This document shows, piece after piece, positions 4,504 to 22,594 of a DNA stretch of 39,171 nt. The notes under the pieces are model-generated. The model worked only from the letters and a program-made list of their open reading frames with translations, was not told the origin of the DNA and ran no database searches. Position 1 is the first letter of the stretch. Each line of letters begins with the position of its first letter. This DNA is from a virus (taxonomy: Duplodnaviria; Caudoviricetes), in the IMG/VR virus record IMGVR_UViG_3300048901_000218, positions 1-39,171 of that record; one strand, 5' to 3'. A program made the translations under genes and the position numbers.

Positions 4504-5171
4504 TGGGCGCTCCTTTTATTTATTCTTTCTATCAGTGTGTAAATGTTCTCAATCTTCTTCTCGATAATGAACATGGCTTTTTCATAGACACGCACTTCTT
4601 TTAAAACTCTGTCTCTTTCAAGACGCGCTTCATTGAAATTGCTCTCGCCCCGCTTCCAGACGGCATCGACTTTGTCAGCCGTTTCAATTTTCAATTTCTC
4701 AAAGTCTTCTTTGAGCGCCTGAATTATCGCTTTGGTATCTCTCTGAAATTCTTGAAAGGATCGCAAATGAATCGCCGTCGCTTCTCTTATCTGTGCCTCG
4801 AGCTCTTTTTGAGCCTTGTCCGCATCTACTTTCGTCGAATAGATGACATGCAAGCCCATGAGCTCTGAAGCCAGAGCCGCCATGGTCTTTTTTTGATCGT
4901 CTATCAGCGTCCGATCTGCGAGTATCCTTTCCTTCAGAAGGCCGAGATTGCATACGGTATACGTCTTGAAATCTTTCATATCTCTTTCGCTCTGTTCCGA
5001 AAGAGACTGAAATTTCTCCATGGCAAGACGGAGAGCATCCCTGAGTTCCTGCATTTCCTTGTTATGCGAGGAGATGAGATGCTGGTGCTCTCTCATCTCC
5101 TGCTTTACAAGGGCATCGAATCTCTTGTCTGCTCTAATAGCCGGTGACAGGGATTGATGTTGGTTGCGCAT
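4500..5171 (-). CDS. Coiled-coil hypothetical protein (start uncertain)
   Basis: Helical K/E/R-rich ORF whose stop overlaps the fibre start codon. Confidence 0.7.
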   Translation of the reverse strand: MRNQHQSLSPAIRADKRFDALVKQEMREHQHLISSHNKEMQELRDALRLAMEKFQSLSEQSERDMKDFKTYTVCNLGLLKERILADRTLIDDQKKTMAALASELMGLHVIYSTKVDADKAQKELEAQIREATAIHLRSFQEFQRDTKAIIQALKEDFEKLKIETADKVDAVWKRGESNFNEARLERDRVLKEVRVYEKAMFIIEKKIENIYTLIERINKRSAQ

Positions 5172-7274: not shown

Positions 7275-7475
7275 ATGAAGCTCTGGGAAGCGCTTAAAGC
7301 AGTTCAGAAAGGAAAGAAAGTCCGTATGTCTCATTGGGAAAATACCTACATAGACAAAGAAAATTGGTTCGAGGTTCTGTACACCATGGGGCCAAAGGAT
7401 TTTTCCTCTAAGGCCAACAAGAAATTCTTTGAGATGCTGGCAGAGGAAGAATGGGAAATTTACGAGGGTCTATGA
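7275..7475 (+). CDS. DUF2829/Tad2-like small protein
   Basis: MKLWEALKAVQKGKKVRMSHW...MLAEEEWEIYE matches the family end motifs as I recall them; GAGGTG RBS. Confidence 0.55.
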   Translation: MKLWEALKAVQKGKKVRMSHWENTYIDKENWFEVLYTMGPKDFSSKANKKFFEMLAEEEWEIYEGL

Positions 7476-7590
7476 ATGAGATAATGAACTTTTGCGACAG
7501 CCACGTCGGCCTCATGGTCTTTTTGCTTTTGATTCTCATGGTATTCAAACGATAAAAATACCGCTGAAGCGGCAAAAAAGAGGTGATCAA

Positions 7591-12374: not shown

Positions 12375-14912
12375 TCAGTTGATTAAGCGGCCCCCCTCTC
12401 TAAACCAGACGTTCATAGCGTTCAATTCCATGGGGCTTTGATGGGTAGCGAGTTGATTCATGAGGTTGTCGTCATAGGTCAGGCCGATGCGAAGATATTG
12501 GCCAAATTGCGTGCTATAGAAGCGGTACCAGGCATATTCCGAGCCAGGAATATACGTCTGCCCATTGACAGGAGTCGTATTCCAGATGCCGCCCGTCGTG
12601 TAGGTGCTGAAGCCCGTGGAGTCAATGCCGTTGAGGGTAAAGTGATTCGCATCGACGACCGTGATCGTGTAGATAGCGGCGTTGAGTTGCGTCATGCCCT
12701 TCACGTTTGCGATATAGATGAGAGTTCCGCTTATGAGGCTGTGATCTGGGCTCGTGATCTGACATGGGTTGGCCTTTGTGGCTCCCGTGATAAAACCGGA
12801 CGCTTGGGAGCTATTGAGGAGCTCCTGATTGGTTGCGATCAGATTCGCCTGCTCTCCGAGGTAGGAATTCACGAAAAGCTGAATCGTTGTGGCGGCTATC
12901 GCAGGGGAGAGCATGTTTGCATCCATTTGGAAATCGATGAAGGAGAGCTTGAATTGCTTGCCTGAGCCCTGGAACGGATTGAAATCCTTGCCCTGAATGT
13001 TCATCTTGGGGAAAAGCGTCACAATGCCGCCGCCTATGTAGGTAGCGCCTCCTGCCGACAAATTGACCGCATCGTAGCTCTGAGTAGTGAAATTCCAGGT
13101 CGAAAGCGTGACCGTATTGGCATCGACAATCGTTACGCTGAATATGACATTGTTAAATCCAGGATCGCCGCTACCGCCAGACCACAGCGTGTTCTGGATA
13201 TAGATGATTTCCCCATTCGCAAGATTATGACTTGTGATCGTGACCTGCGTAGGGTTAACGCCAAAGTTAAAAGCCGATATTGCCATGGTTTGGGCGTAGA
13301 GCGTTGGCGAGCCCTGAGGAGTCTCGGCATCGGGATTCTGATAAATGTTGATAAAGCCCTGCTGCGTTCCGAGCGTGACATAATCGACATACTGCTGGTC
13401 ATCGACGTTGTCCCATGTGACATTGCTCTCCCAAAAGGTCGTGAGGCTGTCCCATGTGATGCCGAACTGGAATTGCGATGTCCCGAAGCAAGTGATGGTA
13501 TCCCTGTTCTTTGCCCATGTGTTGTTGCGATAGTTGAATATGAGGACTTCATTGGGATAGCTCTGGGTGGTAGAGGCATTCGACGTATCGAGATAGTTCC
13601 AATAGACGAGTTCTTTTTCAAAATCCCTCACCCCGTGGACAAAGTTAGGCGCACTACTCTGTATCTCGAAGCTAAAGGCTTGCTCGGGGATTTGCTCATC
13701 GAGGCGCGTTGCGCTAGCCGCATTGGCTTGGATAATGCCCCTGTCGCTCACGGTCATGATGCCCTGGTCGAAAATAATGGAGCTGAATGTAGAAACGGAG
13801 CCGAAATCAGAGGAAATACGCTCCCAGATGAAGGGAAGGCCGTACTCGCCTATGTACCTCAACTGCCACGTGGAATACTCGAAGAAGACAATCAGCGTGT
13901 TCCTGAAAAAGGCGCAGCTGACGATCGCTTCGTTCGTAGGAGCATCGAGGAATCCTCCCCGACCGAATTCGTCGGAGCGCCATCCGTGAGTTTGATCCGT
14001 GGGATCGCCAATCTGACTGAAGCGGCAACGGGCAAAGTAGTTGACGGCTACCGACGCATCAAAGTTGCCTCCGTTTTTCGGCCCTTCCCAAGTGTTTAGA
14101 GCTAGCAGTCTTCCGTAATAAGGAATAACGATGAGAGCTTGATAAAGATAATTAGGGACGGCATCTAATTGAGGCTGTAGATCGATCCATGTGCTATTAT
14201 TATAATAGCGGATCGGATCGTAGGGCGTCGATGCTCCTAGCGTAATATTGTCGTTCGTGACGAAAAAGTATCTTAGATTGGGGGTCGCTCCCTGATAGTT
14301 TGCCGCCCAGAAAAAGTCCGTGTTCGTCCCTGACCAAGTAGTTCCAGGGGCAAGCTCTTGAAAGCCATTGACAAATTGATAGGCGAATTTCGTATCGAAG
14401 AAGACGGTCGCATCGATACCCAAGGTCGCTACGTCTCTCTTGAGGATTCCCATGACGGGAAGACCAGGGAATTCTTGTATTGTTCCGGTTATTGTTTCAG
14501 CCCCACCTCCGGTTATAGTAAGAACGCCTGTTGCATAGTTGATCGTTCCTCCGGTTCCCGTGCCTCCTGTGGCAACAAGTACACCGGCCATTCCTGGATC
14601 GGTATAAAGAGTGCCATCAACACTTCCCGTCACATGGATACTTCCAGGAACTATAGAGGCCGAAGAGCCTAAAGAAAGCGCAGTTTTAAGATTGACGCTG
14701 CCTGCGGTTAAGGCAACAGCTGTCACGGTCACAGAGCGTTGAAGACGACCTACGGGAACTTCACCATCGCGCTTCTTTGTTCTCTCGCGAAACACGTAGG
14801 CATTGTCTATGGTTGAAAAAGCTTCATTAGCTAAGAGCGCAGGTTTCCGATCCTGGGTAAGACCGCCCGAGGGGTATCCTCCGATAAGAACCTGATGAAA
14901 CCCTGAGCTCAT
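12375..14912 (-). CDS. Tail nozzle / packaged-DNA stabilization protein (P22 gp10-like role) with inserted FCCH-like domains
   Basis: 845 aa, beta-rich (IPYYGRLLAL, RCRFSQIGDP, WERISSDFGS); ITGATKANPCQITSPDH...VKGMTQLN domain; synteny. Confidence 0.7.
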   Translation of the reverse strand: MSSGFHQVLIGGYPSGGLTQDRKPALLANEAFSTIDNAYVFRERTKKRDGEVPVGRLQRSVTVTAVALTAGSVNLKTALSLGSSASIVPGSIHVTGSVDGTLYTDPGMAGVLVATGGTGTGGTINYATGVLTITGGGAETITGTIQEFPGLPVMGILKRDVATLGIDATVFFDTKFAYQFVNGFQELAPGTTWSGTNTDFFWAANYQGATPNLRYFFVTNDNITLGASTPYDPIRYYNNSTWIDLQPQLDAVPNYLYQALIVIPYYGRLLALNTWEGPKNGGNFDASVAVNYFARCRFSQIGDPTDQTHGWRSDEFGRGGFLDAPTNEAIVSCAFFRNTLIVFFEYSTWQLRYIGEYGLPFIWERISSDFGSVSTFSSIIFDQGIMTVSDRGIIQANAASATRLDEQIPEQAFSFEIQSSAPNFVHGVRDFEKELVYWNYLDTSNASTTQSYPNEVLIFNYRNNTWAKNRDTITCFGTSQFQFGITWDSLTTFWESNVTWDNVDDQQYVDYVTLGTQQGFINIYQNPDAETPQGSPTLYAQTMAISAFNFGVNPTQVTITSHNLANGEIIYIQNTLWSGGSGDPGFNNVIFSVTIVDANTVTLSTWNFTTQSYDAVNLSAGGATYIGGGIVTLFPKMNIQGKDFNPFQGSGKQFKLSFIDFQMDANMLSPAIAATTIQLFVNSYLGEQANLIATNQELLNSSQASGFITGATKANPCQITSPDHSLISGTLIYIANVKGMTQLNAAIYTITVVDANHFTLNGIDSTGFSTYTTGGIWNTTPVNGQTYIPGSEYAWYRFYSTQFGQYLRIGLTYDDNLMNQLATHQSPMELNAMNVWFREGGRLIN

Positions 14913-15712: not shown

Positions 15713-15853
15713 TCATCCTGTTGTATGCCTCCCAACAAACGGGCCCACTCCTAGGGGTATCGGCTTGTTCGGTAGCGGTTTCAATTTCTTTTTGTTGTCC
15801 TTTCGCAGGCGTTCATCGAATTCCGTTCTCTTCACTTTCTTGTCATGCTTCAT
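15713..15853 (-). CDS. Lys/Arg-rich small protein (46 aa)
   Basis: MKHDKKVKRTEFDERLRKDNKKKLKPLPNKPIPLGVGPFVGRHTTG*; ATGA overlap with the upstream stop. Confidence 0.6.
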   Translation of the reverse strand: MKHDKKVKRTEFDERLRKDNKKKLKPLPNKPIPLGVGPFVGRHTTG

Positions 15854-17214
15854 ATCGATCCAAAGGGTGCTAAACCACCGGAACCCCACTGATACTTGAG
15901 CTGGTCGCTGTAGATTGTGTTGATGCTTTCTTGCCCTATCTGGGCATACGTTCTCGTCTCGATGATGTCGTAGCGCTCCTTCAGCATCTTATCGATGAAT
16001 ATGACTCCATCGCTGTCTAGGCGCTCCTCGAAGATTTTCTTAGCGGCCCCTACGGCGAGGATTTCCCACCACTCGGAGAGTTCGGGATTGCCGGCCTGAT
16101 CTGCGGCTATCAGCGCTTGGATCGGCTGCCGATAGCACGTCATTTCGACCGTGTAGCCCTTATCGGGGACGGGGGCTAGCGTGAATTGGTTCTGGAAGAA
16201 GAGGATCGCTAGAGGAATGGAAAACTGCTTCGGATTATATTGAATCTGGATCGGCGTTCCATCGGGTATGGCCTCGGCAAAGGTCAAGCCTAGGATTTCC
16301 CCTGTCTGGTAGTTGATCGTGGCATTTCCAGGCTGCGTAGGCGTCGCTGAGGCATATTGGCGATAGTAAGTCCAGGCGTACTCCTGGTTGCCGCTATTGC
16401 TCGTCTGGAAGATTTGAATGAGATTCCCTTGGCCATCGTCCGTGACGTTTTGCGTTTGCCCTACGCCATTTGCCCCTATGACATTGGCCGTGATGAGTAT
16501 GTTTTGAACTCGTCCCTGAGGGAAGAAGAGGTTCCTGTTGTTCTGCGGCCCTGGGTCGTTGTTTACGCTCGCGACGAAAGGAGCTGCCGTTGTGAAGCCG
16601 TTATAGGGAGATGTATACCAATCGCCGCCGCTCGTATAGGCCGTAAAGCCGGTTGAATTGACATTGAGCTCAAAAGTATTGACCGTGAGAACCGTGATCG
16701 TAAAGGAAAGGCCATTGACCTGGATCATGCCGCTGACATTGTTGAGAATGACCGTTTCGCCCGAGACGAGCCCGTGGTTGGCCGATGTGACAACAGCATT
16801 CGTCGCTTGCGTGATATTTGTGATGACGCCCGTAGTAGAGCCTGTGGTTCCATTGCCAAAAGCGAAGTTCGTAAAGCTCTGCCAGTTGTAATTATTGGCA
16901 TAAAAGGATGAGGGATCGTTGAACCAGCGGAGTTCCCGTTTAGCACACCAACACGGTTCCTTGACCGTAATATAGAGCTCGCTATTGAAGGGATAGGTAT
17001 CCTGACCTACGTTCGTATTGAAAGAATAGACGTCCTGAAGCTTCAGAGACCGAAATTTTGCGGGTAGATCATAGGCATAGAAGCTGTGCATCTGCTGCAC
17101 GATGTAGCTATCTGTCGTCTGAAAGGCATTGCTAGAGCCCGTGAGCTTCCTCGTCTTTGTGATCGCATTAGCGAGGGTCGGGAAGAGAGGATATGTAGGA
17201 ACGAATGTGCTCAT
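15850..17214 (-). CDS. Head-to-tail adaptor protein with FCCH-like insertion
   Basis: Helical termini; TNVGQDTYPF, TLAPVPDKGYTVEM and EWWEILAVGAAKKI adaptor-type motifs. Confidence 0.7.
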   Translation of the reverse strand: MSTFVPTYPLFPTLANAITKTRKLTGSSNAFQTTDSYIVQQMHSFYAYDLPAKFRSLKLQDVYSFNTNVGQDTYPFNSELYITVKEPCWCAKRELRWFNDPSSFYANNYNWQSFTNFAFGNGTTGSTTGVITNITQATNAVVTSANHGLVSGETVILNNVSGMIQVNGLSFTITVLTVNTFELNVNSTGFTAYTSGGDWYTSPYNGFTTAAPFVASVNNDPGPQNNRNLFFPQGRVQNILITANVIGANGVGQTQNVTDDGQGNLIQIFQTSNSGNQEYAWTYYRQYASATPTQPGNATINYQTGEILGLTFAEAIPDGTPIQIQYNPKQFSIPLAILFFQNQFTLAPVPDKGYTVEMTCYRQPIQALIAADQAGNPELSEWWEILAVGAAKKIFEERLDSDGVIFIDKMLKERYDIIETRTYAQIGQESINTIYSDQLKYQWGSGGLAPFGSI

Positions 17215-17618
17215 GTTGTCGGCTCGTTGTCAAAGGCATCTTCTAATGTCACCGTCGTCGTCCCTTGCACGATTCCTGAGCCAGCTGGCACAGCCACACA
17301 GGGGACTTGAGGGTCTTGTACTGATATAAACGGATAAAAATTGCTCGTGTCTACGGCAATTGTTGCGGTATTTGGCGTTAATGAAATTATCTGAGCTTTT
17401 TGGTTATTTAATTGAATCATGCCGTTAGGCGGAGGAACCCTAAAAGAAATCCACTCCGCCACGGTAAAATTCGTATCGTCCAAGAACGTGACGACCGCAG
17501 GGTTTGCCCGCGTGATGTTCGTTATGTACTGCAAATTCGGGATGAAATTCGCTCCAAAGGGAGGCCCATAGTTGCTTGCCCCTCCTGGAACTACATGCGG
17601 ACTCGAATTAGAAGACAT
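17211..17618 (-). CDS. Single FCCH-like domain structural protein
   Basis: ITNITRANPAVVT...GMIQLN; C-terminus (CVAVPAGSG...DAFDN) paralogous to 18996-20084. Confidence 0.7.
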   Translation of the reverse strand: MSSNSSPHVVPGGASNYGPPFGANFIPNLQYITNITRANPAVVTFLDDTNFTVAEWISFRVPPPNGMIQLNNQKAQIISLTPNTATIAVDTSNFYPFISVQDPQVPCVAVPAGSGIVQGTTTVTLEDAFDNEPTT

Positions 17619-20095: not shown

Positions 20096-20737
20096 TTAAA
20101 TCCCTGTTGAGCGTAGGTTTTGAATCCAGAGGTCGTTTGTGATGCATTGCCCTTGATAGAACGAGCAACCCGCTGTATGCCGCAGCATGCAAGGGTCGTT
20201 GTTATATCCAGGAGGCAGATAGATAAAGCGAGCTTTACCCCCTGCTTGCCACACAACTTTGTATGCCTCTTTTGCGCTCACGAAGCAGTTAGCTATGTCG
20301 TTTCCAAGCAAAGATGCATTGGGGCTGACAGAACCTTGTTCAGAGGCAAAGAAGCGCACGTTGTTCGCTCCGCCTATCTCAACGCTCAAAGTCTGAGATA
20401 TGTTTGGGTACTGGAACTTCTTGATGAATCCGCTCATGTTGTAGAGAACCGGAATCATGCGAGTCGTCAGCATGCACCCGTAGGCATCGCCTATTGGTGA
20501 TGTGCCAAAACGCAACTCGGCTTCCACGATGTTCGTGATGTACTCGCCTGAGTTGTTTTGGAGGACGGTAAAGACATCATCCACATCCGTGATTGTCATC
20601 TCGGTTGGGATGTCGCCGTTCGTTCCGCCTACGCAGTTGATGTTTGACGCAGAAGACTCTAAGTTGTCTCTTTGCAGAGCGTCTTGAGTCTCACGGAGAG
20701 ACTGGCCAAGACGAGCCGCTGCGCTATTCAAAACTGG
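20096..20737 (-). CDS. Major capsid protein, exon 3 (N4-gp56-like family)
   Basis: PVLNSAAARLGQSLRETQD...QYP...EIGGANNVRF...NNDPCMLRHTAG. There is no RBS; the segment begins right after the intron terminal G. Confidence 0.88.
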   Translation of the reverse strand, partial: PVLNSAAARLGQSLRETQDALQRDNLESSASNINCVGGTNGDIPTEMTITDVDDVFTVLQNNSGEYITNIVEAELRFGTSPIGDAYGCMLTTRMIPVLYNMSGFIKKFQYPNISQTLSVEIGGANNVRFFASEQGSVSPNASLLGNDIANCFVSAKEAYKVVWQAGGKARFIYLPPGYNNDPCMLRHTAGCSFYQGQCITNDLWIQNLRSTGI

Positions 20738-21442
20738 CAATCTGTTACTTTTATGACCTATTTCTAGGCGGGAAAAGCTCTTCGGCCTTTCCTCACTGCC
20801 TTCATTTATTCGCAGTGTTCAGACTATCGCATCACCTTTCGGTGTCTACTCACTTAGTCGTTCACGGTAGATTTATATTATACACTCATGCATACTATAG
20901 AAAAGGAGTTGACGTGTTTGAAGAATTGAGTTTCGCATATCTTGCTGGCTACATTGACGGAGACGGGTGCTTTTACATTGATACGGTAAAATCCCCTAGT
21001 AAAAATAAAATCCATCACCGAACCGTTCTTAAATTCGCTTCTGTTGATGTCGAAATAATGGAATGGCTCTCTGCTTTTCTGGGCATCACATTTTGGAAAA
21101 AGGTTGTTTCTAAAAAAAGAAAACACCTTAATCGAAGAGATGTCTATGAGGCCAATCTCACAGGAATAGCTCTGGACAAACTTCTTCCAAAGATTCTCCC
21201 TTATCTTCGAATCAAAAAGAAACACTGCGAAATCATGATAAAGATGAGAAAAACGTACATAAAGCCGAGCAAAGGAGTTGTTTATCCTAAGCCCACTCAA
21301 GAAATTCTCGATCTTCGTCATCAACTTCATTTTCAACTTCGTTCTCTAAATATTCATAAATCTATAAATCCTTCCGCCTTGTCACCCTCTGAAGGGCTTC
21401 CAAGTCAATCAGAGTAGATTTACCGAGGACTCAATTTTGTTA
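20738..21442 (-). ncRNA. Group I self-splicing intron (705 nt) in the major capsid gene
   Basis: 5' splice site after U with P1 CGAGGAU/GUCCUCG. P10 CAAAAUUG/CAGUUUUG; P3 UCUACUC/GAGUAGA; P4-P5; P6 GCGG/CCGU; P6a GGAUUUAUA/UAUAAAUCU; P7 GACUA/UAGUC; P8 CACC-GAAA-GGUG; three P9 hairpins; terminal G. Removal restores the reading frame. Confidence 0.93.
20914..21417 (+). CDS. Single-motif LAGLIDADG homing endonuclease, antisense within the intron
   Basis: AYLAGYIDGDGCF motif and LPKILPYLRIKKKHCEI motif; AAGGAG RBS before GTG 20914; 167 aa. Confidence 0.92.
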   Translation: MFEELSFAYLAGYIDGDGCFYIDTVKSPSKNKIHHRTVLKFASVDVEIMEWLSAFLGITFWKKVVSKKRKHLNRRDVYEANLTGIALDKLLPKILPYLRIKKKHCEIMIKMRKTYIKPSKGVVYPKPTQEILDLRHQLHFQLRSLNIHKSINPSALSPSEGLPSQSE

Positions 21443-21508
21443 ATCCTCGTTGGTTATCGTCACTTGTCTCGTTAAAACGATATAAGTGGCGTATACGCGA
21501 ACTCGGCA
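21443..21508 (-). CDS. Major capsid protein, exon 2 (66 nt, CRVRVYATYIVLTRQVTITNED)
   Basis: 22 open codons in phase 0 with both exon 1 and exon 3; not reported in this frame by the ORF track. Confidence 0.85.
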
Positions 21509-21550
21509 CAATTACGCCGCGTATAACTCCCATGTGGACTGCCGAAGTCT
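21509..21550 (-). other. 42-nt core-less group I-like mini-intron in the major capsid gene
   Basis: Contains an in-frame TAA, follows a U and ends in G. P1 AUGUGGAU/GUCCACAU has a U-G pair at the splice site. P10 is CGGCA/UGCCG. No P3-P8 core. Confidence 0.75.
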
Positions 21551-21790
21551 ATCCACATCAACGCGATTAAGCTGCTGAGGTGGTGGGTTGTTTTGGCCAT
21601 CGTCGAGAGGCACTTCAAACAGGTCGAGCCTGTCATAGCGTGACTGCCGATCAATGAAGCCTTGATTATCTGGCAACTCCACAGGGGTAGCAAACAACTG
21701 GTGAATCAGGTTGTGCTCGGGAGTCGACAGTAACTTTGCGTTGTACCGCTGTTGAATTTGCGGTGGCAACGTTGCAATTGATACCGACAT
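21551..21790 (-). CDS. Major capsid protein, exon 1 (80 codons)
   Basis: MSVSIATLPPQIQQRYNAKLLSTP...RYDRL...QQLNRVDVD; AAGGGA RBS; follows the scaffold gene; spliced product 315 aa. Confidence 0.88.
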
Positions 21791-21808
21791 AGTGTTCCCT
21801 TTGACCTA

Positions 21809-22594
21809 CTAGGTCATTTCGGGAACCGATCCGGCTAAAGCTGCATATCCATGCATTTCACGGTATAAGTCCTTCTTCATGGCGTCGGTCAGCTTGAAAG
21901 CCTGGGCAATAGGCCGCTTGTCGTAAGCCATAGGAGACGTCACCGCCTTCTCTTGCTTCTCGATAGCCTTGTCTACTTCCTTCTCTCTTCGCACTTCCTT
22001 AGCCGTTTGGGAAAGCCCCATGGCCTTGATGTATTTGTAGCTTTGTACTCCGATTTTGTACGGGTCTTTTAAGTCCGCAATCGTAGCCGCCAGTTCCGGT
22101 TCCTTTTCTTCCAAAATTGATAAAGTTTCAGGATTGACGACCTCGGAGAAATCTGAGTATTGACGCTGCAAACGATCCATGAATTGAGTGTCTTGCTGCT
22201 TCTTGAACTGTCTTTCGACTTCTTGACGCACCAAGTCTTCGGCGTTTTTGAGTACTTTCTGAGAACTTTTCTCAGCTAGCTTTTTCACCTTACCTAAAGG
22301 AATGAACTCTTCATCGCCGATACGATCCAACTCATCGAGCTCTTGCCGCACGGGCGCCTGATTCTGCTGGGCTAACTGAGCCTGCATCATAGACATCTGT
22401 GCTTCGCGCACTTGTTTCAGCTCTCTTTCGAGTTCGGCATTCTTTAGACGCATGGCCTTCAAGTGCTGGTTCGTCACCGGCTCCTGAGCTGGCTGTTGCG
22501 CCTCTTTCACTTCATTGATCTGGTTCGCATCAACCTGAGGTGCTACCTCTTTAACTTCGCTGTTTGGGCTGTCTTGCATTGCAGTCGCAGTCAT
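21809..22594 (-). CDS. Putative capsid scaffolding protein
   Basis: Q/E/K-rich coiled-coil protein directly upstream of the capsid gene; GAGG RBS before ATG 22594. Confidence 0.75.
   Translation of the reverse strand: MTATAMQDSPNSEVKEVAPQVDANQINEVKEAQQPAQEPVTNQHLKAMRLKNAELERELKQVREAQMSMMQAQLAQQNQAPVRQELDELDRIGDEEFIPLGKVKKLAEKSSQKVLKNAEDLVRQEVERQFKKQQDTQFMDRLQRQYSDFSEVVNPETLSILEEKEPELAATIADLKDPYKIGVQSYKYIKAMGLSQTAKEVRREKEVDKAIEKQEKAVTSPMAYDKRPIAQAFKLTDAMKKDLYREMHGYAALAGSVPEMT

Follow-up and report, generated by a model that had tools for sequence, protein, structure and literature searches.

A 42-nt insert in the major capsid gene of this phage is quite probably a non-autonomous, core-less group I intron, spliced in cis by the catalytic core of the next full group I intron on the same pre-mRNA. 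The window (the whole 39,171-nt stretch of DNA analysed) is a complete circular phage genome with a 127-nt terminal overlap, and its portal, terminase and capsid genes all lie on the minus strand, as do all features below unless marked otherwise. The capsid gene, recognized through its homologue P0002, which matches the PHROG major head protein, consists of three exons of 240, 66 and 642 nt (codons 1-80 at 21551..21790, codons 81-102 at 21443..21508 and codons 103-315 at 20096..20737). They are split by the insert (21509..21550, phase 0, after codon 80; hereafter a mini) and by a 705-nt group I intron (20738..21442), the proposed helper. With both removed, the frame runs for 315 codons to one terminal stop, and the insert/exon boundaries are fixed because the letters differ on either side. 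The coordinates and sequence that the initial annotation had given for the insert, its in-frame TAA (21514-21512), the 66-nt exon and the 315-aa frame were all correct. Elsewhere in the window, three probable virion proteins (12375-14912, 15850-17214 and 17211-17618, minus strand) match Pfam E1_FCCH (ubiquitin-activating enzyme FCCH domain), two of them above the cut-off.

The insert is real and not coding. Our capsid homologue search found 727 proteins, and 95 of the 120 listed are 315 aa long; among these listed matches, V77-V85 is invariant and contiguous across the insert site in 95/95, as had been anticipated, and none of the 95 encodes the extra residues, with a sense codon at the TAA, that would have spoken against an intron. 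The 42 nt thus contribute no residues. Exon 2 is nearly invariant in the same 95 proteins. One listed homologue is labelled Rhabdochlamydiaceae. Reads of a possible source run span the 42 nt without differences, giving the insert the read support that the initial annotation had called for; a contig from another study is identical to 21523-21809, a segment that takes in 28 of the 42 nt, and a third study holds a variant sequence spanning insert and exon 2. Together with 24 distinct versions in relatives, these records show that the insert is not an assembly slip. Two runs labelled RNA, but probably DNA, gave no junction across the mini.

Within the insert lie the signals of a group I substrate. 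An 8-nt P1 guide (21532..21539) pairs with the last 8 nt of exon 1 (21558-21551), the G at 21539 opposing the last exon U to form the U-G pair (predicted pair probabilities 0.85-0.98); a 6-nt P10 guide (21540..21545), which covaries across the family, is complementary to exon-2 nt 1-6; and the insert ends in G (21509). The complementarity of this guide to the ligated junction, already noted in the initial annotation, proved one base longer than claimed: 14 nt, 13 of them complementary plus the wobble G, for which simple arithmetic gives a chance of about 1e-7 in a 42-mer. The AUUG ending said to be common to the mini and the large intron fared less well, since relatives also end in TTG, ATG, GTG and AGG, but the final G is invariant. 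A guide that is nearly the reverse complement of the junction might also be the leftover of an inverted junction duplication in a dead gene or an assembly artefact. We regard this as extremely improbable, for the two sites together present 96 distinct versions, compensatory changes among them, the exons are intact in complete circular genomes, and the contigs are independent.

What the insert lacks is a core. P1 with its U-G at the 5' splice site, P10 (6 bp) and the terminal G are all present, but P3-P8 with the P7 G-binding site, for which the initial annotation had already reasoned that 42 nt leave no room, are not: the core profile matches the neighbour only, and a simple motif search for P7 found none in 96 minis of both families. 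On these features the insert does not qualify as an autonomous group I intron and has the look of a group I substrate. The guide for this junction resides in the insert itself, and the helper's guide matches the helper's own exon end. That the mini is removed independently of the neighbour's core, either unaided except for the exons or through host or phage proteins, seems very unlikely to us. A precedent of a kind exists in a fungal class of small introns (63-75 nt), one of which is reported to self-splice in vitro in the portion of PMC3160393 consulted; however, those introns keep P7, the shortest phage minis are 28 nt and almost all guide, and core-independent removal would leave unexplained why a further guide, described below, is retargeted to four helper positions.

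The 705-nt neighbour has what a group I intron needs. Its P1 is formed with the last 7 nt of exon 2 (guide at 21430-21424), P3 lies at 21418/20851 and P7, with its G site, at 20859/20826, and P4, P5, P6, P8 and P9 were also located. P7 covaries in four main types among the 49 of 70 related introns that could be parsed, with a bulge and closing-pair pattern that follows the known G-site rule. Rfam group I models matched neither the window, nor the intron region, nor a 227-nt relative; in a profile built from 16 short relatives, the helper core was the only match in the window genome. The adjacent intron, which the initial annotation had named as the lender of the core, is therefore the single candidate of this family in a complete circular genome. 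Antisense within the intron is a LAGLIDADG homing endonuclease gene (20914..21417, plus strand; Pfam LAGLIDADG_1, E 5.7e-8, above cut-off) of about 167 aa, counted from a putative GTG start behind AAGGAG; the gene is intact and its end overlaps the P4-P5 region of the intron. Many introns at the same site (after codon 102) have a similar antisense insert.

Related introns occupy 16 site/phase classes of the capsid gene, with up to six inserts per gene (e.g. L143, L160 and L213); the spliced aligner favours a U before the intron and a G at its end, so that neither feature is independent evidence for the large introns. The capsid gene of L314 has two full introns with an exon of about 19 nt between them. 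Group I cores of this family were not found outside the capsid gene in 20 stretches of 11 related genomes (part or whole), nor were minis in genes other than capsid in the same stretches or in the window. Two terminase genes carry inserts of other kinds. In L209 (about 7440-7484, minus strand; G014 terminase gene), a 45-nt insert after Arg58 contains an in-frame TGA and a 13-bp perfect hairpin and has matching CGG codons at both ends; these features suggest ribosome bypass or the insertion of a palindrome rather than a P1/P10 mini. In L201 (about 4549-5074; G005 terminase gene), a 525-nt insert without a core of this intron family splits the terminase and holds an HNH-like reading frame, the motif being recognized by eye.

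Pattern scans at codon 80, fixing flanking amino acids only and covering insert lengths of 25-86 nt, yielded 17 viral contigs, 17 metagenome records, a further 2 viral contigs and, from genomes, 2 contigs, with some DNA represented more than once. Adding the window to the first three of these sets gave 27 contexts, whose 24 distinct inserts measure 38-48 nt (family 1). The two genome-scan matches sit in Chitinophaga and Acidobacteria bins, possibly mis-binned. No full-length intron that might be an ancestor turned up at codon 80: a pattern that needs TAT at Tyr89 gave no inserts of 56-86 nt there, and a search for the 3' end of a full intron ahead of codon 81 recovered a single mini and nothing else. 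Both the U-G pair and the final G occur in 27/27 contexts, and neither was demanded by the scan pattern; nor is U at the exon end a given, since 19 of 52 intron-less genes have GAC there. The covarying P1 and P10 that had been predicted for relatives' inserts were found: P1 has 6-10 bp, with compensatory changes at position -4 (G-C 20, C-G 7) and at -7 (U-A 19, C-G 7, mismatch 1), and P10 covaries at +3 and +4 (at the latter C-G 18, A-U 8, mismatch 1), with a U-U mismatch at +1 in four contexts. On the family-1 alignment the named structure has 95.1% paired cells, against 25-52% for slid controls, and 32 compensatory cells, against 8.0±2.2 when shuffled; because relatedness alone can lift sequences above their shuffles, more weight falls on the slid control and on the second family. 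Each mini's own exon beat a swapped exon for P1, P10 and the third guide described below (0/5000 shuffles each).

A full intron follows codon 102 in 26/27 family-1 contexts and in both genome-scan matches. With 28 of the 29 contexts thus having a full group I intron at a distance of 66 nt downstream, the obligate co-occurrence that the initial annotation had proposed proved near-obligate. Among 84 distinct loci found by protein alone, 5 had mini and intron, 0 the mini only, 2 the intron only and 77 neither; these co-occurrence counts are not phylogenetically independent, and the association taken alone could be explained by homing co-conversion. The exception is L175 (98% identical to the window in exon 1), where the mini is present and the site-102 intron absent. 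This contig stops at the exact position where L062 and L063 carry an intron, and a helper at the contig end is possible. The L361 contig likewise stops exactly at a known intron insertion site, which suggests intron-plus and intron-minus alleles within one sample for both.

The ends of the family-1 minis raise the question of whether the insert stays in the mRNA and is handled by the ribosome: 23 of the 24 distinct minis close with an ATG, GTG or TTG that is in frame with exon 2, so that translation might bypass the insert or re-initiate at its last triplet to give a split capsid protein. In translational bypass of the T4 gene 60 type, take-off and landing codons match; the codon at the mini's end matches the take-off codon in 0/24 minis of family 1 and 0/72 of the second family. 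A start-like end triplet occurs in only 31/72 minis of that second family, and the full introns of this group, too, mostly end in TTG or ATG (53/70). A helper that skips exon 2 altogether would be another way to leave the insert unspliced, exon skipping being known for tandem group I introns according to the sections of PMC10136302 consulted; but exon 2 is nearly invariant in the 95 listed homologues, and under all these versions the U-G pair at the exact junction and the P10 covariation would lack an explanation. We give this group of explanations scant probability.

What ties the minis to a helper is a third guide, here called the tether, which is complementary to the exon stretch abutting the helper's P1. 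In 24/27 family-1 contexts it comprises 6-10 bases, pairing with exon-2 positions up to 59 where the helper's P1 begins at 60; it starts 9 nt after the guide G (10 nt in one context) and follows synonymous changes in Ile and Thr codons. The three exceptions include the window, whose remnant (21523..21527) makes 5 bp with exon-2 nt 52-56 (21457-21453) in the family register with one compensatory change; the others, L171 and L175, retain 2 bp each. Predicted probabilities for the tether are 0.18 in the window and 0 in L171 and in L175. In all three, the mini's 3' part pairs instead over 8-9 bp with exon-2 positions 9-17 (in the window 9 bp, 21517..21525 with 21500-21492), forming a helix that in the window loops out the 3' splice site and overlaps and competes with the tether remnant. 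We found no shared substitute tether target in the capsid pre-mRNAs of the three.

A blind screen for the same layout brought out a second family. We scanned viral contigs in 24 of the 64 parts of one collection for one conserved core-start pattern, which gave 123 loci, 104 distinct intron 5' ends and 96 ends with a P1 call, and screened these for a hairpin with U-G, a short linker and a guide to the exon abutting P1. The 14 loci that passed fell in two families only: 2 were family 1, and 12 were minis inserted after codon 87 in a capsid clade further removed, where relatives lacking the insert are contiguous (family 2). A helper-blind scan then returned 94 contigs with 73 contexts and 72 distinct minis of 28-41 nt (L338-L431, e.g. 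L339, L343, L347 and L358). The exon-side U was fixed by the scan pattern; the terminal G occurs in 73/73 contexts, and the third P10 pair is Watson-Crick in 73/73, in four types. Every in-frame mini contains a stop (9/9 and 18/18 in the two families).

Family-2 helpers, identified by P1 and a following TAAA rather than by a full core in each case, were found in 72/73 contexts, after exons of 26 (49 contexts), 48 (1), 50 (17) or 86 nt (5); the remaining contig ends exactly at the 50-nt junction. Two helpers missed by the core profile, those of L375 and L425, have the usual P1 after a 26-nt exon and a different core start, which we take to resemble that of another group I subgroup; the helper core may therefore be exchangeable. 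A helper without a mini exists in L223, and no family-2 mini without a helper was seen among those with enough downstream sequence. The tether reaches at least 7 bp (one mismatch allowed) in 64/72, with a mean of 9.8, in a fixed register 9 nt after the guide G, compared with 1.8% of 13,320 other positions, and the 8 that fall short pair once a single bulge or shift is allowed. Tethers also follow the helper's position: where the helper sits at 50, the pairing score is 10.5 there versus 0.9 at the empty site 26, and where it sits at 86, 10.4 there versus 1.6 and 0.4 at the empty sites. For the family, the tether helix, which the initial annotation had not noticed, favours the first of the two options it had named, splicing in cis before the helper leaves.

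Comparison of relatives thus establishes P1 with its U-G, P10, the terminal G, the tether and the co-occurrence, and from these we infer a splicing chemistry of the known group I kind (described in the consulted portions of PMC3984707 and PMC6155759). The tether would set the mini's P1 beside the helper's P1 at one junction, so that either could dock in the single active site. GTP would attack the mini's 5' site; P10 would then form with exon 2, the mini's terminal G would enter the helper's G site, and exons 1 and 2 would be joined, after which the helper would splice itself out. Since the tether binds exon and not intron, it would hold the core only until the helper's exon ligation, and a mini-first order is to be expected. 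A P9.0 pairing of the mini's 3' end with the helper, plausible for TTG ends, was considered and set aside; 21 of the 73 family-2 contexts end in AAG.

The same chemistry might instead run in trans and in no fixed order, the mini's P1 docking in the excised helper, in an intron elsewhere or in one on another molecule. The degenerate tether of the window's subgroup, L175 with its missing site-102 intron, and the Azoarcus ribozyme, which works with its guide supplied in trans (PMC2709566, sections consulted), all lean this way. Against it, the tether adjoins the helper's P1 and follows the helper's position in 24/27 and at least 64/72 cases, an arrangement useful only while the helper is attached, and engineered trans reactions are inefficient in cells (PMC6155759, in the part available). 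We judge trans action unlikely overall; for the window's own copy it is a live rival. There, the core-less nature and the single available helper appear as firm as for the family, and recruitment is less clear: with the tether reduced, splicing in cis by the helper would have to make do with closeness (66 nt) and the 3' helix.

The mini's mobility is likely borrowed as well, through co-conversion during helper homing. Mapping helper class onto a tree of family-2 exon 1 takes 20 changes, where 3 would be the minimum and shuffling gives a mean of 22.1; the bootstrap is unsettled and three branches are long, so that this scatter is only suggestive of mini and helper moving together by homing co-conversion. 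The two families may have evolved twice or been placed twice. Taken together, we think it likely that these minis form a natural class of tethered core-less satellite introns at two or more capsid-gene sites, which borrow both catalysis and homing and need only a changed 10-nt tether to be aimed at a new helper.

The usual view of group I introns is that each acts a single time and on itself. Ribozymes that splice another intron have been engineered, and our search of open-access papers and bioRxiv full text found neither a natural case of this nor a natural helper-dependent core-less group I intron, in agreement with the initial annotation, which knew of no described phage case. If the proposal is true, a single ribozyme performs two splicing events in a set order, a natural counterpart, made of RNA alone, of the spliceosome's division between machine and minimal intron, and an intron can shed its entire catalytic core yet persist in an essential gene. 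Transcripts of a few hundred bases would then be enough to test directly the long-argued 'introns in pieces' route from self-splicing to trans-dependent introns. With its geometry unchanged over four helper positions, the tether amounts to a mutational scan done by nature and points to an easy means of directing a ribozyme to a segment of choice, which, if true, would be a design rule for programmable excision. Inserts of 28-48 nt pass for frameshifts or broken genes in annotation pipelines, and their helpers escape Rfam; thus, more mini families have probably been overlooked.

Other non-autonomous elements rely on their relatives' machinery, among them Euglena group III introns and MITEs, by way of proteins or unknown factors. 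The closest parallels to the phage minis each share some of their features; for the papers cited here, the comparison is with the sections consulted. ORF-less introns that home in trans via free endonucleases are also non-autonomous users of a relative's machinery, but they borrow a protein, whereas the minis would borrow RNA catalysis from a covalently linked neighbour (PMC3984707). Where tandem introns skip an exon (phage Twort orf142, Coxiella 23S rRNA), a short exon likewise lies between two introns, and one core can reach the distal 5' splice site; there, however, both introns are complete and the exon is lost, whereas in the phage capsid gene one is core-less and the exon must stay (PMC10136302). 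A phage-intron paper (PMC11878797) has nothing comparable in its consulted sections. Nearest in mechanism, group I ribozymes have been engineered to cut a segment out of the interior of another RNA (PMC6155759), and trans-excision-splicing ribozymes and spliceozymes resemble our proposal in that a core removes a foreign internal stretch by means of P1, P10 and a terminal G (PMC6155759, PMC4094466, PMC2532722). They differ in being artificial and in carrying the guide on the ribozyme, so that the insert is not a substrate of their type: the phage mini brings its own guide and would be held by an exon tether (PMC6155759). The guide-less Azoarcus ribozyme does place core and guide on separate elements, but it is an in vitro construct with no natural gene (PMC2709566). 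The nearest natural case is that of the PaSSU introns (56-81 nt), small and degenerate group I introns found in Phialophora and in lichen fungi; one of them, a 67-nt Phialophora intron, is reported to splice itself with exon help (PMC3160393). They share with the phage minis their shortness, a retained P1 and P10, a pairing with the 3' exon and the loss of most of the core; unlike the minis, they are reported to keep P7 and to self-splice, reside in eukaryotic rRNA and have no neighbouring helper (PMC3160393), whereas the phage minis, at 28-48 nt and with no P7 seen, point at a neighbouring full intron.
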